DNA of 32,000 bases, taken from positions 2,340,001 to 2,372,000 of the forward strand of contig LT962688.1 in NCBI GenBank assembly GCA_900234795.1. The letters run 5' to 3'. This stretch comes from Methylorubrum extorquens. GTDB taxonomy: Bacteria; Pseudomonadota; Alphaproteobacteria; Rhizobiales; Beijerinckiaceae. The position numbers were made by a program, and so were the translations under genes. Shown here piece by piece: positions 890-27,822 of the stretch (position 1 is its first letter; every line of letters begins with the position of its first letter). The notes under the pieces are model-generated. The model had not been told where the DNA came from, did not search any database, and was given only the letters and a program-made list of their open reading frames with translations.

Positions 890-2899
890 TCACGAGCGCA
901 GGCTGAGGCCGATTCCCTGCCGGTCGGAGAGCGGTGCGACGCCCGTCGGCGCGGCGGCGCGTTCCAGCGGCACACCGGCCTTCTGGAGGTAGTCCACCAC
1001 CGCGAGCGCCCGTGCCCGCGCGAGATCGGCGCCGACATCCGCCCGCTCGGCCTCGTTCTTCTCGGGCTTCGGTTCGGACTTCGCTTCGGGCTTTTGTTCG
1101 GATTTGGACGCCTCCTGCTTCGTCTCGGCTTTGGCCTTGCCCTTGTTGGCCTTCGCGTCCTTCTTGGTGTCCGCCTTGGCGGGCTTGGGTGCCGTCTCCT
1201 TCGCGGCCTCGTCGGCGACCGGGTCGGCTTGGGTCTCGGGCTTCACGCCCGCCGGGTCGAGATGACCCACAACCTCGATCCGCTCCGCCGGACAGGCGCG
1301 TGCCAGCGCCGCCACCGCGTCGAGCACCGGGTAGAACTCGGGCGCGAGCGCCGTGCTCCCTGGGGCAAAGCGCAGGGTATGCCCGGCCGTGCGCTCGGCG
1401 AGGCGCTGTCGGCACGGGCCCATCTCGGCCGCCGCCGAGGGGGCCGCGTCCGAGGTGACGGCGACCGTGGCGTTCCAGCCCGCCGGCATCGCCTTCGGCA
1501 GGGATTGAGCGAGGCGGGCGGCGCTCTCGGGATAGAGACTGGTGCCGGTCAGGCGCAGGCTGGTGTCGGTGATCGTCAGCTCCCCGCTCGCCAGCGTCGA
1601 GAGCGGATCGACCGCCGCCGCAAGCGCCGCGCCCAGAGCGGCCGGCGCACCGTCGGCCAGCCGCGTGCGATCGTGGATCGATTCGCGGAAGAAACGCGGG
1701 TTGAGCCGGGCGAGCAGCGCCTCACGCGTCGCCCGATCCGGCAGATGGCCGCTCACCGTGACGCTGTCGCTGCCGCGGCGGATGCGCAGGACGTAGGGGA
1801 CGATGGGACGGGCGGAGAGGGCCCCACGGCCCGCGGCGATTCCGGGGGGCCGGGCGTCGCGCATCAGCGTCTGTGCCTCGGCGACCGCGCCGGCATCCAG
1901 CGCATTGCCCTCGACCGAGACCGCGTCGCCCTCGAAGCTGACGCGCCCCTCGTGCAGGAGGCCCGCGAGCTGGAACACGAAGCGCGCCAGGGCCGGGCCG
2001 TCGATGCCCGGCGGCAGGCCGCGGGCGTCGCGCAGGCGATCATCGACGGCCGCCCCTTCCGCGGCCTCCGCGGCGGCGGCCCGGATCTCTTCGCGGGCGC
2101 TTTCCGAGGCGACGTGGCCGTTCAGTTCGAGGCTGCCGTCCGGCCGGCGGGAGACACCGAACCGGAAGTCGCCGACGACCGGCGGCGTGATTTCGATCGT
2201 GCCGAGGGTGTAGCCCTGCGGCGGGGTTGCCAGCGCCGTGCGCAGGGCATCGTAGGCGGCCAGACTCGCCGCTTCGCCGCGAATCGAGATGACGGTGTCG
2301 TTGAGCGTGGCGACGGCGCCGGTGGTGAGATCCTGAAGCCGCTCCACGGCGAAGGCTGCGGCATCGGGGAAGTCGCGCGGTGCGCCCCGCGCGGCCCGGG
2401 CGTTGTCGCTCAGGGTGGCATCACGCGGCAGGGCCGGCTTCAGGCGCTGGGCCAATTCGAAGGCACCGACCTCGGCCGGCCGGCTGCCGGTGGCTTCGAC
2501 GCGGCCGGCGGCGGGGCGCTCCACCGACCAGACGAAGGGGGAAACTTCCTCGACCACGCCGGTCCGGTCAGTGAGGCGGCGGATGCCATCGATGGCGGCG
2601 AGCCGGCCGACGGCTGCCTCGCGCTGGGACGCCTCCGGCGCTTCGCCCGTCGCCGTCAGGTCGCGGCCCGCCACCGAAACCCGCAGCCAGGGCTCGGGCT
2701 GCCCCTCTCCGGTCGCGGCGGCGATCGCCGTCGCCTCCCGCTCGAGGCGTTCCGTGACGCGCAGCATGCCGAAATAAGCCGCTGCGGCGATCACGGCGAG
2801 AAGCGGAAGGCCGGCGATCCAGCCGGCCCGAATCAGACGAGACCGGAGCGTGCGGCCGTGCGGCGGTATTTGCGAAGGCGTGGACGAAGGCATGGACAT
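890..2899 (-). CDS. OmpA-family envelope protein with an N-terminal TM anchor, about six BON-like repeats, and a C-terminal OmpA_C-like domain carrying a Lys/Glu/Pro/Ala-rich insert
   Basis: ATG at 2899 is preceded by GAGGAGG (7-nt spacer). Hydrophobic anchor AGWIAGLPLLAVIAAAAYF. Repeated modules of the type v-x-v-x-G-x-a-x-s-x-x-x-r (VSVAGRDLTATGEAPEASQREAAV, VISIRGEAASLAAYDALR, LELNGHVASESAREEIR, VTVSGHLPDRATREALL and others). C-terminus LRFAPGSTALAPEF...IEVVGHLD...ARARALAVVDYLQKAGV matches OmpA_C. Confidence 0.75.
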   Translation of the reverse strand: MSMPSSTPSQIPPHGRTLRSRLIRAGWIAGLPLLAVIAAAAYFGMLRVTERLEREATAIAAATGEGQPEPWLRVSVAGRDLTATGEAPEASQREAAVGRLAAIDGIRRLTDRTGVVEEVSPFVWSVERPAAGRVEATGSRPAEVGAFELAQRLKPALPRDATLSDNARAARGAPRDFPDAAAFAVERLQDLTTGAVATLNDTVISIRGEAASLAAYDALRTALATPPQGYTLGTIEITPPVVGDFRFGVSRRPDGSLELNGHVASESAREEIRAAAAEAAEGAAVDDRLRDARGLPPGIDGPALARFVFQLAGLLHEGRVSFEGDAVSVEGNALDAGAVAEAQTLMRDARPPGIAAGRGALSARPIVPYVLRIRRGSDSVTVSGHLPDRATREALLARLNPRFFRESIHDRTRLADGAPAALGAALAAAVDPLSTLASGELTITDTSLRLTGTSLYPESAARLAQSLPKAMPAGWNATVAVTSDAAPSAAAEMGPCRQRLAERTAGHTLRFAPGSTALAPEFYPVLDAVAALARACPAERIEVVGHLDPAGVKPETQADPVADEAAKETAPKPAKADTKKDAKANKGKAKAETKQEASKSEQKPEAKSEPKPEKNEAERADVGADLARARALAVVDYLQKAGVPLERAAAPTGVAPLSDRQGIGLSLRS

Positions 2900-3114: not shown

Positions 3115-4776
3115 TCAGAAGTCGCGCTGCACGCGGAAGCGAGCCTGGAACACGTCTTCGCTGCTGACCGTGCGGGTCGGGATGTTGTTCACGAAGCCGC
3201 CCTTGTCGCTGTCGGAGACGCGACCGTTCTTAACGCCCGTTTTGATGTACTGGCCCTCGACGCCGATATCGAGATCCTTGACCGGCGACCAGATCAGGCT
3301 CGCGCCGGTGACGACCTGATAGGTGTCACGCAGGGCGGGGCTGAGGCTGTAGCCGACGGCGTTGGTGAGGTAGGACGGCGGTGCCACGGTCGAGGCCGCG
3401 CCGACCACCGAGTTCGCCTGGCTGACCGCCTGGCGGGCGCCCTGCGAGAACCAGATCTCACCGTAGCTGGCGTAGAAGGCCGAACGCCATTCCGGCGACC
3501 AGTAGTGGAGGTAGGACGCCACCGCCGTGAAGCTGTTGGACAGCTCGATGCGGCCGGTCAGCGGGTTGACGATCGCGTCGGAGAGGTACTGGTTGAACGG
3601 GTTGCCCGCGTAGACCGAGGCGTTGCTCAGGTAGCCGGCGGTGAAGCGGTTGATGCCGGTGTAGAACGAAGCACCCTCGCCGTAGGCGCCCTGGAGGTAG
3701 AGGCCGTCGCCGGGGGCGATGAAGGGCAGGTTGAACTTCATGCCGCCCTGGATCGCCCAGCCGTACTCCGTCTGCGCGCCGGCGTTGATGCCGCGCGCCG
3801 CCAGAGCCGCTGCCGTGTTGCCGGCGAGCGCGGCGCCCGTGCCGGGAACGCCGATCGACGAGCCAGCGATGAAGCCGCCGGTGTTGATGTCCTTGACGGC
3901 GGCCGAGAGCTGAGCCGAGCCCCAGGCGGCGTCGTAGCGCAGCGAGCCGACGAAATCGGGCAGGCGCGAGCGCTGGACGGCGTCGATGAAGGCCACGGCG
4001 GTGGCGTTACCGGCGGCGTTGGTCCCGAGGATGATCGGGGTCGGGGCCGTGGTGAACACGTTGTTCAGACCAGCCTGGCCGGGGACGAGGGCCGTGCTGC
4101 CGGCCGCGTCGGAGTAGAGCGGGTTCTTGCGGTAGTTCGGGTCTTCCATCGACAGCGTCACCGACCAGCCCTCACCGAACTTTTGGGTGTAGGCGAGCAG
4201 GTTGGTGGACGGCAGGTCGGAGCCCAGCGACGAGCCGATGATCTCGAAGTCGTGGGCGTAGAAGTCGAAGAACGAGGAGGCGCGACCGGCGGTCAGGCCG
4301 GCGAACTGCACGAACGCCTTGTCGACGTTGATGAAGTTCTGAACGCGGCCGAGCTGGTCCTGGCCGGTGCCGGAGAAGGCGTAGGCGCCGCGCAGGTTCG
4401 TGCCGGAGGAATACTTCGTGTTGCCGGTACGGCTTGCGGCGTCGAGGCGCAGGAAGGCGCGCAGGGTGCCGTAGCCGGTCTGGGTGCGGGCATCGAAGTT
4501 GAAGCGGGCAAGGCCCGTGAAGCCCGAGATATCGCCGCCGCCGGGGACGTTGCGATTGTCGGTGCCGATATAGCCGTACTCGGCGCGGGCGCGGCCGGAG
4601 ACACGCAGGCAGGTATCGGTGCCGGGAATGTAGAAGAAGCCGGCGCCGTAAGCGGTGCAGACGCGGACGTACTCGATCGGAACGGCCTTCTTCACCGGCA
4701 GGTCGGCGGCCTGAGCCCCACCCACGACGGCCAGCCCCGCTGCCGATCCAAGGAGAAGGCTCTTCACGAGCTTCAT
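3115..4776 (-). CDS. Outer-membrane porin (alphaproteobacterial Porin_2 / Omp2b-RopA-like family), 553 aa
   Basis: Start moved to ATG 4776 (MKLVKSLLLGSAAGLAVVGGAQA|ADLP, a clear signal peptide) with GGAGGG upstream. Family-typical N-terminus EYVRVCTAYGAGFFYIPGTDTCLRVSGRARAEY and C-terminal FQARFRVQRDF. Confidence 0.9.
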   Translation of the reverse strand: MKLVKSLLLGSAAGLAVVGGAQAADLPVKKAVPIEYVRVCTAYGAGFFYIPGTDTCLRVSGRARAEYGYIGTDNRNVPGGGDISGFTGLARFNFDARTQTGYGTLRAFLRLDAASRTGNTKYSSGTNLRGAYAFSGTGQDQLGRVQNFINVDKAFVQFAGLTAGRASSFFDFYAHDFEIIGSSLGSDLPSTNLLAYTQKFGEGWSVTLSMEDPNYRKNPLYSDAAGSTALVPGQAGLNNVFTTAPTPIILGTNAAGNATAVAFIDAVQRSRLPDFVGSLRYDAAWGSAQLSAAVKDINTGGFIAGSSIGVPGTGAALAGNTAAALAARGINAGAQTEYGWAIQGGMKFNLPFIAPGDGLYLQGAYGEGASFYTGINRFTAGYLSNASVYAGNPFNQYLSDAIVNPLTGRIELSNSFTAVASYLHYWSPEWRSAFYASYGEIWFSQGARQAVSQANSVVGAASTVAPPSYLTNAVGYSLSPALRDTYQVVTGASLIWSPVKDLDIGVEGQYIKTGVKNGRVSDSDKGGFVNNIPTRTVSSEDVFQARFRVQRDF

Positions 4777-5102
4777 GGTATACCCTCCAGAAGTTTCGAG
4801 ACCCACGGGATCGGACTTCTGTTTTGGCCGGGCGCCCACCATTCCGTGGTCGTTCCGGCTTGTCCTTTTTCCCTTGGAGCTTGGCCCTTCCCTTCCGGGT
4901 TATCGGCCAAGCCGCAGCGGGGTTATCCCGTCCGCAGCGGCACCATGAGCGAGCGTGGCCTTACGGGCAACAGAGATGACTGTCTTGGAGCTGACACAAA
5001 GCTGCTTCGCTGCACTCTGTTGCAGCATCGCAACTTAATCCCCGTCCGCTAGCAAAAGTTTTCCACGAATCGAGGCATCGTAGAAGGTCCGTCGAGGGAT
5101 GG

Positions 5103-6926
<1,824 letters not shown>

Positions 6927-8638: not shown

Positions 8639-9847
<1,209 letters not shown>

Positions 9848-18151: not shown

Positions 18152-18216
18152 GTGGCGGGTGGGGCAGAGAGAGGGGCGGCTTTTGAGAGCGTCCGGGATG
18201 AGGTGGTGAGCGCGCG

Positions 18217-18774
18217 ATGCGGTGTCCGTTCTGCGGAGGTCCCGACACCCAGGTGAAGGATTCGCGGCCGAGCGAGGATTCCTCAGCGATCCGCCGCCGC
18301 CGTGTCTGCCCGGATTGCGGCGGTCGCTTCACGACCTTCGAGCGGGTGCAGTTGCGCGAACTCGTCGTGCTCAAGCGCTCGGGCAAGCGCGTGCCGTTCG
18401 ATCGCGACAAGCTCCAGCGCTCGATCGACGTGGCGCTGCGCAAGCGCACGGTCGATCCCGAGCGGGTGGAGCGCCTCGTCAGCGGCATCACCCGGCGCCT
18501 GGAGAGCGGCGGCGAGGGTGAGGTCACCAGCGAGGCCATCGGCGAGGCGGTGATGGAGGGCCTCAAGGGGCTCGACGACGTGGCCTATGTCCGCTTCGCC
18601 TCGGTCTACAAGAATTTTCGCGAGGCACAGGATTTCCAGGATCTGCTCGGCACTCTCGGGGAGCGGTTGGAGGGCGAAGGCGACCTGCCCGAAGAGGGGG
18701 ACGCTGTGCCCACCCCTCCCGACGAGGCGGTTGCCGCCCCACGCCGTGGCCGTCCGGCCCGGAAGCGGGCGTGA
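18217..18774 (+). CDS. nrdR: Transcriptional repressor NrdR
   Basis: [17 protein letters not shown]...[19 protein letters not shown] (zinc ribbon) plus an ATP-cone ([20 protein letters not shown]). Acidic C-terminal tail. Confidence 0.95.
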
Positions 18775-19901
18775 CGGGGCGAGCCGTGGACCTGTCCGAG
18801 CAGCAAGCCCTCGATCGGCGCGCCATGCGCCTCGCCCTCGCCCTGGGGCGGCGCAATCTCGGCCGGACCTGGCCGAATCCGAGCGTCGGCGCCGTCGTCG
18901 TGGCCGAGGGCCGCATCGTCGGGCAGGCGGTGACGGCGGTCGGCGGTCGCCCGCATGCGGAGCCGCTGGCGCTCGCCATGGCCGGCGAGGCCGCGCGCGG
19001 GGCCACGCTCTACGTCACCCTCGAGCCCTGCTCGCATCACGGCCGCACGCCGCCCTGCACCGACGCGACGATCGCCGCCGGGATCGCCCGCGTGGTCACC
19101 GCGATCGAGGATCCCGATCCGCGGGTGGCCGGGCGCGGCCATGCGGGTTTGCGCGCGGCCGGGATCACGGTGGAAACCGGCCTGCTGCGCGAGGAGGCCG
19201 CCCGCGATCATCGCGGCCATTTCTCCCGCGTGACGCGCGGACGCCCGAGCCTGCACCTCAAGCTCGCCCGGACCCGCGACGGCTTCGCCGCGCCCTCAAC
19301 CGGCGAGCGGCTGAAGATTACTGGTCCGGTCGCGGATGGCGCGGTGCATCTGTGGCGCGCCCATGCCGACGCGATCATGGTCGGCATCGGCACGGCTCGC
19401 GCCGACGACCCTTCGCTGACGGTCCGGCTTCCGGGGCTCGCCGCGCGCTCGCCGCTGCGGATCGTGCTCGACTCGACATTGCGCCTCAACCCCGCCAGCC
19501 ACCTCGTGCGCGGGGCCCGCGACCTGCCGACCCTGGTTCTCACCGGGCGCGGCGCCCCGGCCCATGCCCGGCGGATGCTCGCCTCCTTCGGCGTCGAGAT
19601 CGCCTTCGTTCCGACCGATGCGGGGGGCCGCATCGATCTGCCCGCCGCGCTGAAAGCGCTGGCGGAGCGCGGCCTGACCCGGATCTGCAGCGAGGGCGGG
19701 CCGGCGCTTGCCGACGCGCTCGCGGCGCACGATCTCATCGATGCCTGCACGCTCATCACCGGCTCCGTCACGCTGGGCGAGGCCGGCGGCTTGCCGGCGC
19801 TCGGGGGCAACCTCGCCCGCCGCCTCGCCGACGGCTCGCTGAGCGTGGTCGAGACCCGCGATTACGGCCCCGACACGGCGGTCACCTACGAGAGGATCTG
19901 A
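18771..19901 (+). CDS. ribD: Bifunctional riboflavin biosynthesis protein RibD (pyrimidine deaminase / uracil reductase)
   Basis: GTG 18771 overlaps the nrdR stop (GTGA). Deaminase zinc motifs HAE and [16 protein letters not shown]. Reductase half with KLARTRDG and SEGGPALA. Alternative GTG start at 18786. Confidence 0.93.
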
Positions 19902-19902
19902 C

Positions 19903-20541
19903 ATGTTCACCGGACTCGTCAGCGATGTCGGCCGAGTCGTCTCCGTGGAGGGCTCGGAGCGCCTGCGCCGGATTGTGATCGAGAGCGCCTACGATCCCGC
20001 CGGCATCGCGCTCGGCGCCTCGATCGCCTGCTCCGGCCCCTGCCTCACCGCCGTTGCGGTGGAGCCGCACGGGGCGGGCTGCCGCTTTTCGGTCGATGCC
20101 GCCGCCGAGACCCTGGCCCGCACCACCGTGGGCGCTTGGCGCGAGGGCACGCGGCTCAACCTCGAACGCTCGCTCAAGCTCGGCGACGAGCTCGGCGGCC
20201 ACCTCGTCACCGGCCATGTCGACGGCGTCGCCGAGATCCTCGCCCGCGAGACGGTGACCGGCGAGGACAACCCCTGGGGCGCCAGCGAGCGCTTCACCCT
20301 GCGGGCGCCGGCCGCGCTCGCCGGCTTCATCGCCGAGAAGGGCTCGATCTGCCTCGACGGCACCTCGCTCACCGTCAACGCGGTCTCAGGCCACGATTTC
20401 TCGGTGCTGCTGATCCCGCACAGCCTCTCGGTCACGACCTGGGAGGAACGCCGCGAGGGGGATCGGATCAATCTGGAGGTCGATCTGCTCGCCCGCTACG
20501 CCGCGCGCCTCGCCGAGACGCGCGGGTTGTTGCCGGCGTAA
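19903..20541 (+). CDS. ribE: Riboflavin synthase (alpha chain)
   Basis: MFTGLVSDVGRV N-terminus and two lumazine-binding repeats (GASIACSGPCLTAV, GSICLDGTSLTVNAV). The start is 2 nt after the ribD stop. Confidence 0.93.
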   Translation: MFTGLVSDVGRVVSVEGSERLRRIVIESAYDPAGIALGASIACSGPCLTAVAVEPHGAGCRFSVDAAAETLARTTVGAWREGTRLNLERSLKLGDELGGHLVTGHVDGVAEILARETVTGEDNPWGASERFTLRAPAALAGFIAEKGSICLDGTSLTVNAVSGHDFSVLLIPHSLSVTTWEERREGDRINLEVDLLARYAARLAETRGLLPA

Positions 20542-20554
20542 GGACCGGTCCGGC

Positions 20555-21076
20555 TTACTTGCCGTCGTAGGAGGCGGCGAGACTGTTCATGATCTGGTTC
20601 GTCTCGGCGTCGTACTTCTTGTCACCCTCCGGCGAGGCCCAGTAGCTCACCAGCAGATGGCGCTGGCTGTCGGCTTTCGGCACGACCGAGAGGTAGCGCA
20701 GCACCGTCGGCTTGCCTTCATAGGTCGCAGGATATTCGGTGACCTTGAGGGCGTAGGTCGGGAAATCGACCTCCTTCGACTGGCCCTCGCCGGTCACCTT
20801 GACACCTTGTTCCTTGAAGTAGGCGTTGTGCTCGCCGAACAGGGTGTCGAACTGGGCGGGCTTGTAGCTCTCGAACCAGAGATAGATTTCCTCGTCCGCG
20901 GTCCGCGCCTGGACGCCACGGTCGATCGTGGTCACCTTCCACGCGGCGGGGATCTCGACGGAAATCGGTCGATCTCCGGGGACGACCGTAACCTTCTTGG
21001 CAAGGGCGGCGCTGCCGGCCAGCAGAAAGAAGGCGAGTGCCGCGCCGGCCAAGAATTTCGGCGATCCGATCGTCAT
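20555..21076 (-). CDS. Secreted or periplasmic protein of unknown function (173 aa)
   Basis: ATG 21076 with AGGGGA six nt upstream. Signal peptide MTIGSPKFLAGAALAFFLLAGSAALA|KK with no lipobox Cys. GC is noticeably lower than in neighbouring genes, and it is Lys/Glu/Tyr-rich. I recognise no family. Confidence 0.7.
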   Translation of the reverse strand: MTIGSPKFLAGAALAFFLLAGSAALAKKVTVVPGDRPISVEIPAAWKVTTIDRGVQARTADEEIYLWFESYKPAQFDTLFGEHNAYFKEQGVKVTGEGQSKEVDFPTYALKVTEYPATYEGKPTVLRYLSVVPKADSQRHLLVSYWASPEGDKKYDAETNQIMNSLAASYDGK

Positions 21077-21369
21077 GAATATCCCCTGTCGGCCCGCCTC
21101 GTTGCGAACGAGCCGGCGCTAGACTTGCCGTCGGTCCCGGTTTTCGGCAATGCACGACCGTCCCAAATCGACAGAAACCTTTTCGCCGAGACCGCGCGCC
21201 CCGGAATTCGTGGCGACGGGACCTCCGCATTGTGTGACCGCCGGATGCCTCTCCGGTTCGACAAGTTTTCGTGAGAAAGCCACCGGATCATTTGTGAGGA
21301 AGACTTAACTCTTCCCATCGAATCCTCTGCGTCGATTCGGATTCGCTTCGTGAAAGGGCGGTCGCCACC

Positions 21370-22590
21370 ATGACGGTTACAGGACGCCGCGACCGGGTGC
21401 TGGCGGCGCTGACCGCGCTGAGCGGTGCCCTCCTCCTCGCCGTCCTTCTGGGACGGGGCGCGCTGCGCGATGCCGGCTTCAACTCGCACGGTGCGCTGGC
21501 CGACGCCTTCCTGCACGGCCGGCTCTGGGTCGAGCGATGCCCCGAGATCGATTGCGCCGTGTTCGAGGGGCGCACCTACATCATCTTCCCGCCGCTGCCG
21601 GCACTGCTGCTGACGCCGTTCGTCGCGCTGTTCGGCTTTCCCGGCTTCAAGGGCTTCGTGCTTCTCGGCCTGGGCCTGTCGGCCCTGGGCCTGCTCGCCT
21701 GGAGCCGCATCTTCCGCGCGCTGGAGGTCGAGCGCGGGCAGGCGTTGTGGCTGCTTGCCGCGCTCGCCTTCGCGAGCCCGCTCTATCAGGTCACGCTGCG
21801 CTCCGACGGCGTCTGGTTCTTCTCCCAGACCGTCGGCTTCCTGATGATGACATTGAGCCTGTGGGCGGTGATCTGCCGAAGTTCGCTGCCGCTCGCTGGA
21901 TTGTTCGTCGGCCTCGCCTTCCTGTGCCGGCAGATGGCGATCTTCTATCCGCTGTTCCTGCTGGTTCTGGCCCTGCCCCGCGGGCGCCCGCTGCTGGCGA
22001 ACCCGGCCTCGGTGGCGAAATCCGCGATGCTGGCGGGCCTGTTCGTCGCGGCCGCCATTGCCGTCTACTGCGCCTACAACGCCGCGCGCTTCGGAAGCCC
22101 GTTCGAGACCGGCTACGCCTTCATCCACAATCCCGGACAGGACAGCTTCATCTGGCGGCGCATCACCGAGGGCGGCCTGTTCTCGCGCGACTACCTGCTG
22201 TTCAACACGCTCTACCTGTTCCTGCAGGGGATCCATTTCGAGTTCGGCGGCCCCCGGCTGACCGAACTCGTCGGCTTCGACAAGGCCGGCACGGCACTCC
22301 TCGTGGCGAGCCCGTGGCTGCTGCTAGCCTTCTACGCGCGGCTCGACCGGGTCTTCGCCGCCGGGGCGGCAACCATCGCGGTCATCGCCGGGATCACCCT
22401 GTTCTACCACTCGAACGGCGCCGAGCAGATCGCGACCCAGCGCTACGCCCTCGACTGGCTGCCGATCCTGATCGTGCTGATGTTGCGCGGGGAACGCCCG
22501 CCGGCTTTCGCCGCCCTACCGATCCTCGTCACCTGGGGGGTCGTCGCCAACCTCGCCGTGGTGACGCTGCTGGCCCTCTACCGGCTCTGA
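21370..22590 (+). CDS. Polytopic inner-membrane protein, GT-C-fold-like glycosyltransferase candidate (ArnT/PMT/arabinosyltransferase-like), 406 aa
   Basis: About 10-11 predicted TM helices. The first extracytoplasmic loop carries acidic motifs (LRDAG, LADAF, EID) followed by GRTYIIFPPLPALLLTPF, a layout typical of lipid-carrier-dependent GT-C enzymes. High GC3 supports coding. The family assignment is by eye only. Confidence 0.6.
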   Translation: MTVTGRRDRVLAALTALSGALLLAVLLGRGALRDAGFNSHGALADAFLHGRLWVERCPEIDCAVFEGRTYIIFPPLPALLLTPFVALFGFPGFKGFVLLGLGLSALGLLAWSRIFRALEVERGQALWLLAALAFASPLYQVTLRSDGVWFFSQTVGFLMMTLSLWAVICRSSLPLAGLFVGLAFLCRQMAIFYPLFLLVLALPRGRPLLANPASVAKSAMLAGLFVAAAIAVYCAYNAARFGSPFETGYAFIHNPGQDSFIWRRITEGGLFSRDYLLFNTLYLFLQGIHFEFGGPRLTELVGFDKAGTALLVASPWLLLAFYARLDRVFAAGAATIAVIAGITLFYHSNGAEQIATQRYALDWLPILIVLMLRGERPPAFAALPILVTWGVVANLAVVTLLALYRL

Positions 22591-23003
22591 GGCTGAGGCC
22601 GCAGAGTTGCGCCGAAGGTGAGAAGCCGGTGGCCGAGATAGTTCGCCACGGCGCCGACGGCGATGCCGACGCCGTGGCCGAGGGCTTGCGCCACGGCCGG
22701 CTTCAGATCCGGCAGCAGTCCGGTCAGGCCGTCGATCATCAGCGTGCTGACCGCGAGGACCACCGCGGCGCCGATGGCGTTGACCGCAAGGAACAGGGCG
22801 AGCTGCCCGGAGAGCGACCCGTGCGAGGCCGCCCGGAACACGAAGGCGCGGTAGAGCCAGAAGCCGGCGGCCATGCCGATGCCATAGGCCACGATCAGGG
22901 CTGCCTCGAACGGCAGCACCAACGAGAGCAGGATCCGCGCGAGCCAGTTGATCGCCGCCGCCGAGCCCCCGGCGATCAGGAAGCGGACGACCTCGCTTCG
23001 CAT
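22578..23003 (-). CDS. GtrA-family membrane protein (lipid-linked sugar translocation/handling family)
   Basis: Start moved to ATG 23003 (MRSEVVRFLIAGGSAAAINWLARILL...ANYLGHRLLTFG, 141 aa, 4 TM helices). Its ATG overlaps the stop of the upstream HAD-UbiA gene (ATGA). Its 3' end overlaps the convergent GT-C gene by 13 nt. Confidence 0.8.
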   Translation of the reverse strand: MRSEVVRFLIAGGSAAAINWLARILLSLVLPFEAALIVAYGIGMAAGFWLYRAFVFRAASHGSLSGQLALFLAVNAIGAAVVLAVSTLMIDGLTGLLPDLKPAVAQALGHGVGIAVGAVANYLGHRLLTFGATLRPQPQSR

Positions 23004-24529
23004 CACAGCCCGAACCCTTGTGGCAGGAGACCGGGCGGCAGGCCGAATGCCGCCACCGCGAAGGCGAGGCCGGCCACACCCGCGAGCACGAGGCTCGGGC
23101 GGTCCCTGACCGCGAAGGCGACCGGGTCGTCGTGGAGCGCGTCGCGGCCCGCCAGCAGCCAGACCCGGCCCATGAACAGGACGAGGATCAGCGGGAAGCT
23201 CCACAGGGCCAGCGGCGCGGCGAGCGCCGCGTGGCGGAACGCCTCGTTGGCGAGATACAGGATGAAGATAACGACGCTAGCGAGCCCCGAGGCGATGCCG
23301 AAGGCGAGCACCACCGGCTCGTCCGCCGGCTCATAGCCGCGCCCGGCGATGGTGCCGGCCTGGCCCCGTCGCGCCGCCCCGCGCAGCTCCGTGTGGCGCT
23401 TGGCGAAGGACAGCGAGGTGAACAGGAACATCGAGAAGGTCAGGAGCCAGGGCGACCACGCCACCGCGACCGCCGCGACGCCGACCGCGATGCGCAGCGA
23501 GAACAGGCTCCCGAGCGTCAGCGCGTCGAGCATCGGCACCCGCTTGAGCCACGCGGAGTAGGCCAGCGTCAGGGCGAGATAGGCGAGCACGCCGGTGAGC
23601 ACCGCCGCCCCGGCCCAGGCCGCAACCGCCAGCCCGCCCGCGAGGCCGAGCACGATCGCCGCCAGACCGGTGGCGATGGGAAGCCGGCCGCTCGCCAGGG
23701 GGCGCTCGCGCTTCGACCAGTGCGCCCGATCGTGCGAGAGGTCGAGCAGGTCGTTCAGGAGGTAGCTCGCCGAGGCGACGAGTCCGAGCGCGAGAAAGGC
23801 CAGACCGGCGCTCCCCCAGGCTTGCGCGTCCCCTGCCCGGCCGCCGAGGACGAGCGGCACGAAGACCAGGGCATTCTTGGCCCATTGGTGCAGGCGCAGG
23901 GCCTTGAGCAATGCGTGCGAACGCGAGGCGGCAGGAAACTCCTCGACCGGCTTGCCGAGCCGCCGGGCCGCGCGGAGCACGGAACCGGAGGCTCCGACGA
24001 CGATCACCCGCCGGGCCGCGGCCCAGACCGGAAGGTCGGCCGCGGCATCGCCCGCGTAATCGAAGCCCTGCGGGTAGAGCGCCCGGAGCTGCGCGGCCTT
24101 GGTCTCCCCTTTGAGGTTGCGCACCCCGTCGCTCGCCACCACACGGTCGAAGACGGGAAAACGCCGCAGGGCGCGCAGGGCCATCAGCTCGTCGGCGGCC
24201 GTGGCAAGCACGATCTCCTGGCCCGCCGCCTTCCGTGCCTCGATATGGGCGAGCAAAGCCGCGTTGGCCGGCAGAGTCGCGACGTCGAGCACGGCGCCCT
24301 CCGCGATGCGGCGCTTGAAGAAGGCCCGCCCCCGCGGCAGCCACAGCAGCATCACCAGCAGCATCAGCGGGTTGCGCCGCAGCAGCGCAATGATCCCCTC
24401 TAGAAGCAGGTCCGTGCGCAGCAGCGTGCCGTCGAGGTCGATCACCAGCGGCACCGGCCGCAACGCCGAGGCCGCGTCCTCGATCAGGATGGGGGCCGTC
24501 TCCGCCCTTCGCGCATGCGCCGTCGCCAT
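23003..24529 (-). CDS. Fusion protein: N-terminal HAD-superfamily phosphatase plus C-terminal UbiA-family prenyltransferase (decaprenyl-phosphate phosphoribosyltransferase-like)
   Basis: HAD motif I DLDGT (aa 31-35) and motif IV GDAAAD (aa 160-165). UbiA Asp-rich motif NDLLDLSHD (aa 259-267) followed by RPLASGRL. About 8 TM helices in the C-terminal 300 aa. Confidence 0.8.
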   Translation of the reverse strand: MATAHARRAETAPILIEDAASALRPVPLVIDLDGTLLRTDLLLEGIIALLRRNPLMLLVMLLWLPRGRAFFKRRIAEGAVLDVATLPANAALLAHIEARKAAGQEIVLATAADELMALRALRRFPVFDRVVASDGVRNLKGETKAAQLRALYPQGFDYAGDAAADLPVWAAARRVIVVGASGSVLRAARRLGKPVEEFPAASRSHALLKALRLHQWAKNALVFVPLVLGGRAGDAQAWGSAGLAFLALGLVASASYLLNDLLDLSHDRAHWSKRERPLASGRLPIATGLAAIVLGLAGGLAVAAWAGAAVLTGVLAYLALTLAYSAWLKRVPMLDALTLGSLFSLRIAVGVAAVAVAWSPWLLTFSMFLFTSLSFAKRHTELRGAARRGQAGTIAGRGYEPADEPVVLAFGIASGLASVVIFILYLANEAFRHAALAAPLALWSFPLILVLFMGRVWLLAGRDALHDDPVAFAVRDRPSLVLAGVAGLAFAVAAFGLPPGLLPQGFGL

Positions 24530-24841
24530 GCTGGATAACCCCCGTTTCCAGTGCGGGACCGATGGTCGAAGGCCCGCAAACTTGCGTTCGACAGTCTATC
24601 GCCGGGACAGACTTCGGTCCGGTTAATAAGGGGCACCGCAGGTTGTGGCGGCGGTACTTCCGCCTGATTTGATTGATCAAACCTTCCCGGGCTAACCGAA
24701 AGGCGAAGCTTCTATGGGCCGGAACATGCGCCCCGGTCGCGCACCCGCCGCGCCCCGTGCCGCTTGTGGAGCCCGCGGCACTTGGGCTAACCCTCCGGCC
24801 CGCCCCGAACATTCGTGAACTCGCCCCGGAACGACAGTCGC

Positions 24842-25364
24842 ATGGTCTCCCAACGCCGGGACGCGGACGCGCCCAAGGACAGCCCCAAAAGCATCCTCGA
24901 AAGCCTCGCCGGCACCCGCGTGCTCGTGGTCGAGGCGCGCTACTACGACGACATCGCCGACGAATTGCTGGCCGGTGCCCGCGCGGCGATCGAGGCGGTC
25001 GGCGCCGAGGCGCGGGTCTTCACGGTGCCGGGCGCCCTCGAGATCCCGGCCGCCATCGCGATCCTGATGGATGCCGGCCGCAAGGCCGGCGGTCCTTTAC
25101 GATGCGGCGGTGGCGCTCGGCTGCGTCATCCGCGGCGAGACCGGCCATTACGACATCGTCGCCGGCGAGAGCGCCCGCGCGCTGATGGACCTTTCCGTGG
25201 CTGAGCACCTGCCGCTCGGCAACGGCATCCTCACCGTGGAGACCATGGAGCAGGCGCTCGCTCGCGCCCGGGTCTCCGACATGAACAAGGGCGGCGGTGC
25301 AGCGGAGGCGGCCCTGAGCCTCCTCGCCATCAAGCGCGCCGCCAACCTGGAACCCGCCCGATGA
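24842..25364 (+). pseudogene. ribH: 6,7-dimethyl-8-ribityllumazine synthase; frame broken by +1 nt in a TTT run
   Basis: Frame A gives ...[58 protein letters not shown]. Frame B gives [34 protein letters not shown]...GNGILTVET. They join at CCTTTAC (T-run 25096-25098). Length is 523 nt, that is 174 codons plus 1. Alternative GTG start at 24815. Confidence 0.88.
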
Positions 25365-25878
25365 CAGACCCCGCCGCGACACCGGCCCAGCCGAAGCCGA
25401 ACGCCCGCACCGGCGCCCGCCTCGCCGTGGTGCAGGCGCTCTACGAGATGGAGATCTCGGACAAGGGCGTGATAGAGGCGCTCGCCGAGTTCGAGGCCTT
25501 CTGGATCGGTCAGGAGGTCGATGGCGTCGTCCACCCGCCGGCCGAGATCGCGTTCTTCCGCGATGTGCTCCGCGGTGCTGTGGAGGAACAGCGCGCCATC
25601 GACCCGAAGCTCGATACGGCGCTGGCGAAGGGCTGGCCGCTGCGCCGGCTGGAAGCGGTGCTGCGCGCCATCCTGCGGGCGGGCGCCTATGAGCTGATGT
25701 TCCGCCGCGACGTGCCGGCCCGCGCCGCGATCTCGCAATATATGTCGAGGTCGCCTACAGCTTCTATGGCGGCGACGAGCCGGGCATGGTCAACGCCGTG
25801 CTCGACCGGGTCGGCCGCGAGGTGCGCTCCACCGAGTTCGGTATCCCGGCCGCTCCCGGCCCGGCGAAGAAGGGCTGA
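25361..25878 (+). pseudogene. nusB: Transcription antitermination factor NusB; frame broken by +2 nt in TATAT
   Basis: The ATG overlaps the ribH stop (ATGA). ARLAVVQALYEMEI...LRAILRAGAYELMFRRDVPARAAISQY is in frame 2. VEVAYSFYGGDEPGMVNAVLDRVGREV...PAKKG-stop (TGA 25876-25878) is in frame 1. The junction is CAATATATGTCGAG (25739-25743). Length is 518 nt, that is 172 codons plus 2. Confidence 0.88.
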
Positions 25879-26903: not shown

Positions 26904-26938
26904 AAAAAACGCCCGATCACGGCGTCGCAGCGGGCGTT
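26904..26938 (-). terminator. Rho-independent terminator of the SDR gene
   Basis: On the minus strand: AACGCCCG-15-nt loop-CGGGCGTT followed by TTTTTT (A-run 26904-26909 on plus). It lies 38 nt after the corrected SDR stop (26976-26978), but inside the uncorrected frameshifted ORF, which runs to 26917. Confidence 0.75.
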
Positions 26939-26975
26939 CCGTGACGGACACCCCGGCGGCCGATGGCAAGCCGGG

Positions 26976-27822
26976 TCAGGCCTCGATTCCGGTCTGGCGC
27001 CGGCTCAGGGTCCAGACCCGCTCCTGCAACGCCTCGTCCCGGCTGAGGGCGGACGAGGCGGTCTCGCGGCTTTTTGGCGAAGTAGCGTCCGCTCACGCCG
27101 TCGAGTTCGGGCGCGGTCGCGACATGGAGCGAGGTCCTGGCGCCAGCCTCGGTCGAGATCAGGAACGGGCGGATCAGGCTCCAGGCGAAGCCGAGCCCGC
27201 CCCTGGTATTCTTGGCGAAGTCGCTCGCCACGACACCCGGATGCACCGCGTTGACGGTGATGCCGCGTCCGGCCAGCCGCCGGGCGAGCGCATAGGTGAA
27301 CAGCACGTTGCCGAGTTTGGCCTGGGCATAGGCCTTCATCGCCGCGTAGCGGCGCTCGCCGCCGAGATCGTCGAAGTCGATGCGCCCGCGGGTATGGGCG
27401 GCGGAGGCGAGGTTGACGATGCGGGCACGGGGCGCGGCTTCGAGCGGGCGACGCAGCTCGTGCGTCAGCAGCACGTAGGCGAGATGGTCGAGGGCCCAGG
27501 TCCGCTCGATTCCGTCGGCCGTGACGTGGCGCTCCGAGAAGATCGCGCCGGCATTGTTCACGAGGAGGTCGAGGGCGGGGTAGCGCGCCCTCACCTCGCC
27601 CGCGAGCCGGCGGATCTCGGCTTGGCTCGACAGGTCGGCGAGAAAGACGTCCGCCGCGCCGCCGGTCTCCCGGCGCAGATGCGCGGCGGCGCGTTCCGTG
27701 CGCTCGCGATCGCGCCCGACGAGGCCGACCCGCGCCCCGAGGCGGGCGAGCCCGAGGGCCGTCTCGGCACCGATCCCGGAGGAGGCGCCGGTGACGAGGG
27801 CGGTGCGACCGTCGAGGCGCAC
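26976..27822 (-). pseudogene. Short-chain dehydrogenase/reductase (classical SDR, retinol-dehydrogenase-like); frame broken by +1 nt in an A5 run (T5 on plus)
   Basis: GTG 27822. TALVTGASSGIG (TGxxxGxG), NNAG, and YAQAKLGNVLF (YxxxK). After ...SGRYFAK the track ORF turns into Pro/Arg-rich nonsense. Removing one A at 27071-27075 gives SRETASSALSRDEALQERVWTLSRRQTGIEA-stop. Length is 847 nt, that is 282 codons plus 1. Confidence 0.85.

Follow-up and report, generated by a model that had tools for sequence, protein, structure and literature searches.

A three-gene module inserted in the riboflavin gene cluster of Methylorubrum extorquens and its predicted role in envelope pentofuranosylation

What do the four genes that separate ribE from ribH in Methylorubrum extorquens encode, and do they belong together? 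The window analyzed here is a stretch of 32,000 nucleotides (contig LT962688.1 of assembly GCA_900234795.1, positions 2,340,001 to 2,372,000 of the forward strand), and all coordinates given below are those of the window unless a locus from another genome is named. Between the end of ribE at 20541 and the start of ribH at 24842, four genes are present where an earlier note, made from the sequence alone, had placed them. They encode a 173-aa protein with a signal peptide, a 406-aa polytopic protein with a glycosyltransferase C (GT-C) fold, a 141-aa GtrA-family protein, and a 508-aa protein in which a HAD domain is fused to a UbiA domain. We propose that the last three form a system that adds a pentofuranose to an envelope molecule outside the cytoplasm, and assign this reading a probability of roughly 0.78.

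In the proposed pathway, the UbiA-fold domain would transfer 5-phosphoribose from phosphoribosyl pyrophosphate (PRPP) to a polyprenyl phosphate, presumably undecaprenyl phosphate, at the cytoplasmic face of the inner membrane, and the fused HAD domain would remove the 5-phosphate to give polyprenyl-phosphate-beta-D-ribofuranose; both steps are assigned by homology. The GtrA protein, whose translation is plausibly coupled to that of the fusion, may then move the lipid-linked sugar across the inner membrane, or organize the enzymes that do so, and the 406-aa GT-C protein, with a candidate Asp61 in its first periplasmic loop, would transfer the sugar to an acceptor in the envelope. This order of synthesis, dephosphorylation, flipping and periplasmic transfer had been laid out in the earlier note, and it matches the experimental system of Citrobacter youngae (PMC11127046).

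The HAD-UbiA fusion as a predicted lipid-linked pentose synthase

The 508-aa fusion matched the NF006088/PRK08238 profile with 641 bits (cutoff 351), and its residues 18-495 covered profile positions 4-481 of 482. On this coverage the protein is a full-length member of PRK08238, with both the HAD and the UbiA parts represented. The next-best UbiA-type models were three for decaprenyl-phosphate phosphoribosyltransferase (DPPRS), which scored up to 126 bits, whereas models for quinone, heme, chlorophyll and archaeal-lipid prenyltransferases scored at most 39 bits. The single PDB sequence match was Rv3806c from Mycobacterium tuberculosis (8j8j; E 6e-20, over the full length). Based on these scores and the Rv3806c match, the UbiA domain falls with the polyprenyl-phosphate phosphoribosyltransferases and not with the quinone or heme type, in agreement with the assignment made earlier. 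In Pfam, the UbiA domain was detected with 71 bits, and the HAD domain with 23.5 bits, a score below its cutoff of 27.

The motifs quoted for the fusion in the earlier note were all found, namely DLDGT (residue 31), GDAAAD (160) and NDLLDLSHD (259). The protein contains the N-D-x-x-D-x-x-x-D motif in cytoplasmic loop II and the K/R-x-x-E motif in loop IV. Seven DPPRS-type residues (N259, D260, D263, D267, K377, R378 and E381) line up with the active site of Rv3806c and do not vary in any of 62 homologues encoded at related loci; their counterparts in ORF15 of C. youngae are required for activity. Within the HAD motifs, D31-L-D33-G-T35 and G160-D-A-A-A-D165, both D31 and D33 are kept in 61 of the 62 homologues and D165 in all of them. 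The fusion is thus predicted to consist of an N-terminal HAD phosphoribose phosphatase (approximately residues 18-190) and a C-terminal polyprenyl-phosphate 5-phosphoribosyltransferase (approximately residues 198-495), and its predicted product from PRPP is polyprenyl-phosphate-beta-D-ribofuranose. The same domain architecture and catalytic motifs are seen in ORF15 of C. youngae, an N-terminal HAD/C-terminal UbiA protein, and membranes containing ORF15 convert PRPP and farnesyl phosphate to farnesyl-phosphate-ribofuranose (Kelly et al. PNAS 2024, PMC11127046). The ORF15 HAD mutant D18A accumulates the 5-phosphate intermediate, and activity is lost when the N-D-x-x-D-x-x-x-D motif is mutated (PMC11127046).

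The 406-aa protein as a predicted GT-C-fold glycosyltransferase

The 406-aa protein has the same sequence as ARO56812.1/WP_085857424.1 (100% identity). It matched no Pfam model at E <= 0.1, PMT_2 (PF13231) included, and in NCBIfam only a weak match was obtained, to a putative Leptospira glycosyltransferase family (NF047440, 35 bits). An AlphaFold2 (AF2) model based on 37 homologues reached a predicted local distance difference test score (pLDDT) of 87.7 and a predicted template-modelling score (pTM) of 0.91. When this model was compared with solved structures in the PDB using Foldseek, ranks 1-15 were all occupied by GT-C-fold proteins with probabilities of 0.75-1.0, including ALG3, ArnT, PimE, AglB, GPI-MT-I, PIG-U, Pmt1/2 and PglB. 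ArnT was the best-superposing solved structure (TMq 0.50), EmbC appeared lower in the list (rank 27, probability 0.25), and membrane proteins of other folds appeared only with probabilities of 0.09 or less. The GT-C-like nature proposed earlier is thus reproduced by the predicted structure. Judged from the model, the protein is a GT-C-fold glycosyltransferase of an unnamed family, and we predict that it acts as a periplasmic pentofuranosyltransferase. PF13231 was matched by 15 of 37 members of this family at E <= 0.1 (best E 5.6e-8); as the window protein itself lies below the PMT_2 threshold, it is a distant relative of PMT_2 and not a member.

The first extracytoplasmic loop, which follows the first transmembrane helix, contains an invariant C57-x3-D61-C62 motif, and Asp61 is a candidate for the GT-C catalytic acid. 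A search among 1.84 billion representative proteins placed 426 representative clusters in the family at E <= 1e-30, a number that rose to 1,826 when the threshold was relaxed to E <= 1e-10. Distant relatives (P0361, P0368, P0386 and P0332) carry either an N-terminal CBM_4_9 region of approximately 280-300 aa or a C-terminal BNR/Ycf48-like propeller, and several members of approximately 580-640 aa have N-terminal extensions without a Pfam match. The window enzyme has neither a carbohydrate-binding module (CBM) nor a soluble periplasmic domain. The CBM fusions of its relatives echo the CBMs of ORF12, EmbC and AftD, which suggests glycan acceptors in at least part of the family. A literature search on these proteins found no publication.

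The GtrA-family protein

The 141-aa protein matched PF04138 (GtrA_DPMS_TM) with 57.3 bits (cutoff 26.1), and its residues 8-131 span the whole 117-position profile. It is hydrophobic, with approximately four transmembrane helices, and the GtrA gene adjoins the HAD-UbiA gene in 68 related loci. By analogy with the family precedents Rv3789 and PsPA7_6247, we predict that it serves as a flippase or a hub for the polyprenyl-phosphate-pentose.

Conservation of the trio in Hyphomicrobiales

A scan based on the GT-C alignment, in which each species was represented by a single genome, gave 80 loci, all from Alphaproteobacteria and nearly all from Hyphomicrobiales. The GT-C, GtrA and HAD-UbiA genes were adjacent in approximately 65 of these (tblastn), in Methylobacteriaceae, Devosiaceae, Pseudovibrio, Hansschlegelia, Methylopila, Methyloligella and Parvibaculaceae as well as in Microbaculum, Chelatococcus and Falsochrobactrum. 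The convergent layout seen in the window was the commonest; a co-directional operon was found in Devosia, Cucumibacter, Flaviflagellibacter and on a plasmid of Devosia neptuniae. The genes flanking the trio are unrelated between genera, examples being penicillin-binding protein and alpha-2-macroglobulin genes in Microbaculum, pst/phoU in Pelagibacterium and hopanoid genes in M. terrae. All-versus-all clustering of 4,920 open reading frames from 83 loci revealed no fourth conserved partner, the next-largest cluster consisting of generic ATPases of ATP-binding cassette (ABC) transporters. Co-located synthase, transporter and GT-C genes are a feature of the pentofuranose systems of Kelly et al. 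(2024). These genes are contiguous in the window as in approximately 65 of the 80 related genomes, and in silico the trio looks like a member of this three-component class.

The conservation of the trio also bears on a different reading of the GT-C protein, in which it would be an ArnT- or Rgt-type transferase for another lipid-linked sugar, e.g., galacturonic acid (GalA), with the HAD-UbiA and GtrA genes nearby by chance or for the sake of another product. Such a role would fit the UniRef name 'RgtA/B/C/D-like domain-containing' given to homologues and the label 'ArnT-like' used by some annotators, the GalA found on both lipid A and core of the M. extorquens lipooligosaccharide (LOS), and the GT-C gene that stands alone in Hoeflea. 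However, homologues owe the Rgt-like name to no more than the generic PMT_2 domain, and in the clustering of the 83 loci no GT2-type polyprenyl-phosphate-sugar synthase of the RgtE/ArnC/GtrB kind emerged as a conserved neighbour. Although the flanks have turned over completely and the layout can be convergent or co-directional, the adjacency to HAD-UbiA and GtrA has been kept, which is not expected of an incidental neighbour. We therefore regard an ArnT/Rgt-type function as very unlikely and retain the pentofuranose pathway for all three genes.

Several points weigh against the pentofuranose pathway. The Foldseek E-values for the 406-aa model are only around 1e-3 and a PDB search with the GT-C family profile returned nothing at E <= 1, so that the GT-C assignment draws on the fold together with the weak PMT_2 matches. 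The flippase role of GtrA proteins is disputed, a hub role having been proposed for PsPA7_6247. As the GT-C gene occurs alone in Hoeflea and in a few metagenome-assembled genomes, the donor may differ within the family. The published LOS of strains AM1 and PA1 is pentose-free, which leaves the clade without an observed product of the pathway. Finally, epimerases acting on the lipid-linked sugar may be encoded elsewhere in the genome.

Some loci depart from the simple trio. In Pelagibacterium and relatives (L008, 9232-10959; also L040, L046 and L052), a gene for a 575-aa MsbA-like ABC exporter lies between GT-C and GtrA; it matched TIGR02203/02204 with 461 bits, below the cutoff. In Hansschlegelia (L059, 11208-13235; similarly in L073 and L086), the same position is taken by a 675-aa AT3-SGNH acyltransferase of the OafA/OatA type, and an SLT lytic transglycosylase is encoded just upstream in L059. 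In Methylobacterium sp. WSM2598 (L009, 9289-11115), the HAD-UbiA gene beside the GT-C gene is split into two UbiA fragments that overlap, and a GtrA gene was not found at this locus; the copy may be decaying, or the assembly may be at fault. The Hoeflea GT-C gene (L083, 10001-11206; also L076, L079, L093 and L094) is flanked by pleD/divK-like response-regulator genes on one side and dnaE on the other. Neither a HAD-UbiA nor a GtrA gene occurs within 10 kb, and its donor synthase must be located elsewhere or be a different one. Homologues of the HAD-UbiA fusion also occur on 84 plasmids, mostly from Rhizobium.

The 173-aa secreted protein

The earlier note had described all four genes as one glycosylation module and mentioned the adjacent secreted protein as a possible acceptor. 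If the four genes were one unit, the 173-aa protein could be a glycosylation target or an accessory of the GT-C enzyme. Its gene is divergent from the GT-C gene and this position is kept in M. zatmanii, Leaf123, M. aminovorans and M. podarium, the only genomes in which it was found beside the module; moreover, among the proteins of its fold class are LpqN and Apa, a glycoprotein secreted by mycobacteria. Gene order in sister species argues against such a unit. In M. thiocyanatum and M. suomiense (L017 and L029), the trio is kept, the 173-aa gene is missing and ribE directly adjoins the GT-C gene. M. rhodinum has kept the 173-aa gene with ribD-ribE (L014) and has the trio with ribH-nusB-thiL (L013), where, in the isolate genome, its upstream neighbour is IalB. 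The 173-aa gene is absent from every trio locus outside Methylobacteriaceae, and a homologue with 41% identity adjoins Mla-type transport genes with no module nearby. Being missing, or located apart from the trio, in sister species, the gene is best seen as a bystander. We thus replace the four-gene module by a three-gene unit, do not favour the secreted protein as acceptor, and consider the four-gene alternative highly improbable.

No model in Pfam or NCBIfam matched the 173-aa protein. Its homologues fall into only 37 clusters, and those with a source name are all from Methylorubrum. The AF2 model (pLDDT 88) shows a sandwich fold of the PsbP/DcrB/LpqN/Tsi3 type and gave PsbP, EagT6, DcrB, Mtc28, LpqN and Tsi3 as best Foldseek matches. 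Going by synteny and sequence, the 173-aa protein is a periplasmic, clade-specific passenger next to ribE and not a component of the module.

Which sugar is transferred

In the pathway described by Kelly et al., the absence of an epimerase leads to ribofuranose, an ORF13-type epimerase to xylofuranose, and DprE1/DprE2 to arabinofuranose (PMC11127046). The earlier note had reported no DprE1/DprE2-type epimerase in the window. This holds: tblastn with DprE1-like and DprE2-like probes from Rhizobium etli gave no DprE1 match in the window, and an NCBIfam check of the short-chain dehydrogenase/reductase (SDR) encoded downstream of the module agrees. As no epimerase is linked to the module, D-ribofuranose is by default most likely the transferred sugar, by analogy with the C. 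youngae system, and the earlier suggestion that it could be ribofuranose instead of arabinofuranose appears reasonable. The pC operon of R. etli CIAT 652 (RHECIAT_PC0000151-156; L095, 6920-14199), from the same order, Hyphomicrobiales, offers a contrast that strengthens it. This six-gene operon begins with a HAD-UbiA gene, which is followed by a GtrA gene, and these are contiguous with DprE1-like and DprE2-like genes and with genes for two membrane proteins of approximately 535 aa. The R. etli HAD-UbiA protein is 38% identical to that of the window and matched PRK08238 with 649 bits, and the DprE1-like protein scored 406 bits. The two approximately 535-aa proteins gave no family match and no tblastn similarity to the 406-aa GT-C protein. 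From its gene content, the operon looks like a complete D-arabinofuranose system, i.e., an arabinose-type version of the pathway.

Alternatively, the same machinery could transfer D-arabinofuranose or xylofuranose, if DprE1/DprE2-like or SDR enzymes with genes at other places in the genome epimerized the polyprenyl-phosphate-ribose before flipping. Parallels exist in mycobacteria, in the pili of Pseudomonas aeruginosa PA7/Pa5196 and in C. youngae O2, and a D-arabinan is made by Devosia submarina, a member of a family in which this type of module occurs (PMC8707391). GT-C enzymes of the pathway can also show promiscuity towards the pentose, two of 83 related loci (L033 and L047) have a DprE1-like gene no more than 10 kb away, and generic SDR genes adjoin the module in four lineages. 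However, the window and the other 81 loci have no DprE1/DprE2 homologue, and in R. etli pC, where arabinose is expected, synthase and epimerase genes form one contiguous run. The SDRs at 26917-27822 and beside the module in L041, L050, L053 and L054 were considered as DprE2- or ORF13-like epimerases and rejected, since they are heterogeneous generic types, FabG- or glucose-dehydrogenase-like and in varying orientation, and DprE2 models were not among the 25 best NCBIfam matches of any of them. An epimerized sugar is thus unlikely, and D-ribofuranose remains the preferred assignment.

Which acceptor is modified

M. extorquens AM1 and PA1 carry the GT-C protein at 97% identity (ACS41115 and ABY31553). 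The LOS of these strains consists of 14 residues, all of them pyranoses (glucosamine, Kdo/Ko, GalA, rhamnose, quinovosamine and galactose), and contains no pentose (PMC10052234). LOS is therefore an unlikely acceptor under laboratory conditions, and is disfavoured as a candidate. We would guess at a glycan or glycolipid that belongs to neither the LOS core nor lipid A. The lack of a soluble periplasmic domain in the window enzyme would be compatible with a lipid-anchored or membrane-proximal acceptor.

Weak hints of an envelope function come from other genera, namely the AT3-SGNH insertion, the MsbA-like exporter and the CBM fusions. The Hansschlegelia AT3-SGNH insertion suggests a glycan that is both pentosylated and O-acylated. 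Weak hints of the same kind are an O-antigen ligase encoded next to a Bacteroidota homologue of the GT-C protein and the D-arabinan capsule of D. submarina (PMC8707391).

In M. terrae (L011, 662-6602), the trio is located beside genes for an MMPL protein (HpnN-like), LytB/IspH, a radical-SAM DUF3463 protein (HpnH-like) and a PNP_UDP_1 protein (HpnG-like). HpnG makes ribosylhopane. This adjacency to hopanoid genes is a lead for a lipid acceptor, and may be coincidental.

Relation to known systems

The closest experimental parallel is found in C. youngae O1/O2, where ORF15, the MATE flippase ORF14 and the GT-C protein ORF12 (GT136) follow the same three-step logic ending in a GT-C enzyme (PMC11127046). 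In serotype O1, the epimerase-less version gives ribofuranose, the sugar proposed here. The window module differs in having a GtrA-family protein in place of the MATE transporter and a minimal 406-aa GT-C protein without the C-terminal CBM of ORF12, and in being located outside any O-antigen or polysaccharide locus. Using ORF15 as a probe, Kelly et al. found candidate systems with MATE or SMR/GtrA-type transporters and GT-C proteins mostly annotated as hypothetical, in bacteria with unknown glycans such as Rhizobium sp. CCGE531 (PMC11127046). Their phage example was not recovered in a phage collection, where a single weak partial match was obtained.

The mycobacterial decaprenyl-phosphate-arabinose pathway likewise combines an Rv3806c homologue, a GtrA partner (Rv3789) and GT-C periplasmic transferases. 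It differs from the window module in its separate PAP2-type phosphatase Rv3807c (the window phosphatase being the fused HAD domain), in the presence of DprE1/DprE2, none of which is linked in the window, in its several large CBM-bearing Emb/Aft enzymes as opposed to one small GT-C protein, and in its decaprenyl phosphate carrier, which in the window is presumably undecaprenyl phosphate. D-arabinofuranosylation of pilin in P. aeruginosa PA7/Pa5196 (PsPA7_6245-6249 and TfpW) also uses a DPPRS homologue, the GtrA-like PsPA7_6247 and a GT-C protein. This system, however, includes DprE1/DprE2 and a separate phosphatase, its TfpW is a larger oligosaccharyltransferase/polymerase acting on pilin, and no pilin genes are found near the window module. 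The noeCHOP genes of Azorhizobium are involved in arabinosylation and act on Nod factors. GtrABC and ArnT/RgtA-D systems share the polyprenyl-phosphate-monosaccharide, a small GtrA or ArnEF transporter and a GT-C enzyme; their donor is made by a GT2 nucleotide-sugar synthase (GtrB, ArnC or RgtE), whereas the window encodes a PRPP-dependent UbiA-fold enzyme.

As the three-component pathway was described in 2024 (Kelly et al.), the concept itself is not new. Specific to the present case are the compact GT-C family without a Pfam model, the order-wide spread independent of polysaccharide loci, and a model host with no known pentose product. A broader reading, which we put forward only tentatively and regard as rather doubtful at present, is that the trio is an order-wide, epimerase-free minimal ribofuranosylation system of Hyphomicrobiales whose GT-C protein founds a new family and which acts on a conserved, so far unrecognized envelope acceptor. 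The latter would be sought less in O-antigen or LOS than among membrane glycolipids, peptidoglycan, periplasmic glucans and proteins. If this broader reading is correct, model methylotrophs such as M. extorquens carry an overlooked ribofuranose-modified envelope component. An active module would imply that the envelopes of AM1 and PA1 bear ribofuranose or another pentofuranose outside the published LOS, and thus an uncharacterized glycoconjugate. Few GT-C proteins are as small as the 406-aa enzyme, which, together with its synthase, could serve periplasmic pentofuranosylation in glycoengineering. In addition, thousands of Hyphomicrobiales entries named "hypothetical protein" or "UbiA family prenyltransferase" gain a pathway context.

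Insertion between ribE and ribH

The four genes do not sit between ribE and ribH throughout the order, as comparison of the junction with other Methylobacteriaceae (L097, L098 and L099, with ribE at 6001 in each) showed. M. bullatum has the arrangement glyA-nrdR-ribD-ribE-ribH-nusB-thiL with a ribE-ribH gap of only 210 bp. An M. organophilum-type contig carries a glutathione S-transferase gene and a WYL regulator at the junction, and in M. nodulans ribE is followed by genes for a WD40 protein and a manganese catalase, with no ribH within 6 kb. None of the loci outside Methylobacteriaceae in the 80-locus set has the trio near rib genes. These observations favour the lineage-specific insertion suggested in the earlier note: on gene order, the ribE/ribH junction is a variable insertion site in Methylobacteriaceae that carries different cargo in different species, and at this site the trio is confined to the Methylorubrum clade.

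Locus layout and sequence quality

The features of the region are listed in Table 1. All four open reading frames between ribE and ribH have a G+C content at third codon positions of 0.84-0.91, typical of coding sequence. As described earlier, the GT-C gene converges on the GtrA gene, the two overlapping by 13 nt at their 3' ends, and diverges from the 173-aa gene, from which it is separated by 293 bp. The translational coupling proposed for HAD-UbiA and GtrA is plausible, but the ATGA junction given for it was wrong. The actual junction is GTGATG, a one-base TGA/ATG overlap between the HAD-UbiA stop and the GtrA start, or GTGA if the start codon is GTG.

Table 1. Features in and around the ribE-ribH interval of the window
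Feature	Position	Strand	Remarks
nrdR	18217-18774	+
ribD	18771-19901	+
ribE	19903-20541	+	NF006767, 204 bits
173-aa signal-peptide protein	20555-21076	-	PsbP/DcrB/LpqN-like fold
Intergenic region, 293 bp, divergent	21077-21369	.	Presumed promoter of GT-C gene
406-aa polytopic GT-C-fold protein	21370-22590	+	AF2 model and Foldseek
GtrA-family protein, 141 aa	22578-23003	-	PF04138
HAD-UbiA fusion, 508 aa	23003-24529	-	NF006088/PRK08238
Intergenic region, 312 bp, divergent	24530-24841	.	Presumed promoters of HAD-UbiA and ribH units
ribH	starts 24842		Followed by nusB and thiL
Generic SDR, PRK06197 type	26917-27822		Three genes downstream of module

A regulatory RNA tying the module to ribH, such as a flavin mononucleotide (FMN) riboswitch, was considered and rejected. 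An Rfam scan of the window was empty, with no match in the 293-bp region and no FMN riboswitch or other element at gathering score in the 312-bp region.

Identical four genes in the same order were found in short-read assemblies of the same strain type (L001-L006), and the module region 20542-24841 showed zero differences from the short-read contigs. Compared with the short-read contig L001, the window is otherwise 99.95% identical and contains eight extra bases, all located in homopolymers or dinucleotide repeats (17842, 18166-18167, 25096, 25738-25739, 26424 and 27071). These bases cause frameshifts in ribH (25096), nusB (25738-25739), thiL (26424) and the SDR gene (27071). From this comparison, the eight inserted bases are most likely long-read assembly errors in the reference and do not mark pseudogenes. 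A ribH pseudogene as a biological feature was rejected, the frameshift being due to one of the inserted repeat bases absent from the short-read assemblies.

Further upstream, the window encodes a BON/OmpA-domain protein (890-2899, minus strand), an alphaproteobacterial Porin_2 protein (3115-4842, minus strand) and a CcrM-type adenine methyltransferase with a RAMA domain (8642-9847, plus strand), the latter matched with 605 bits, below the cutoff of 830.

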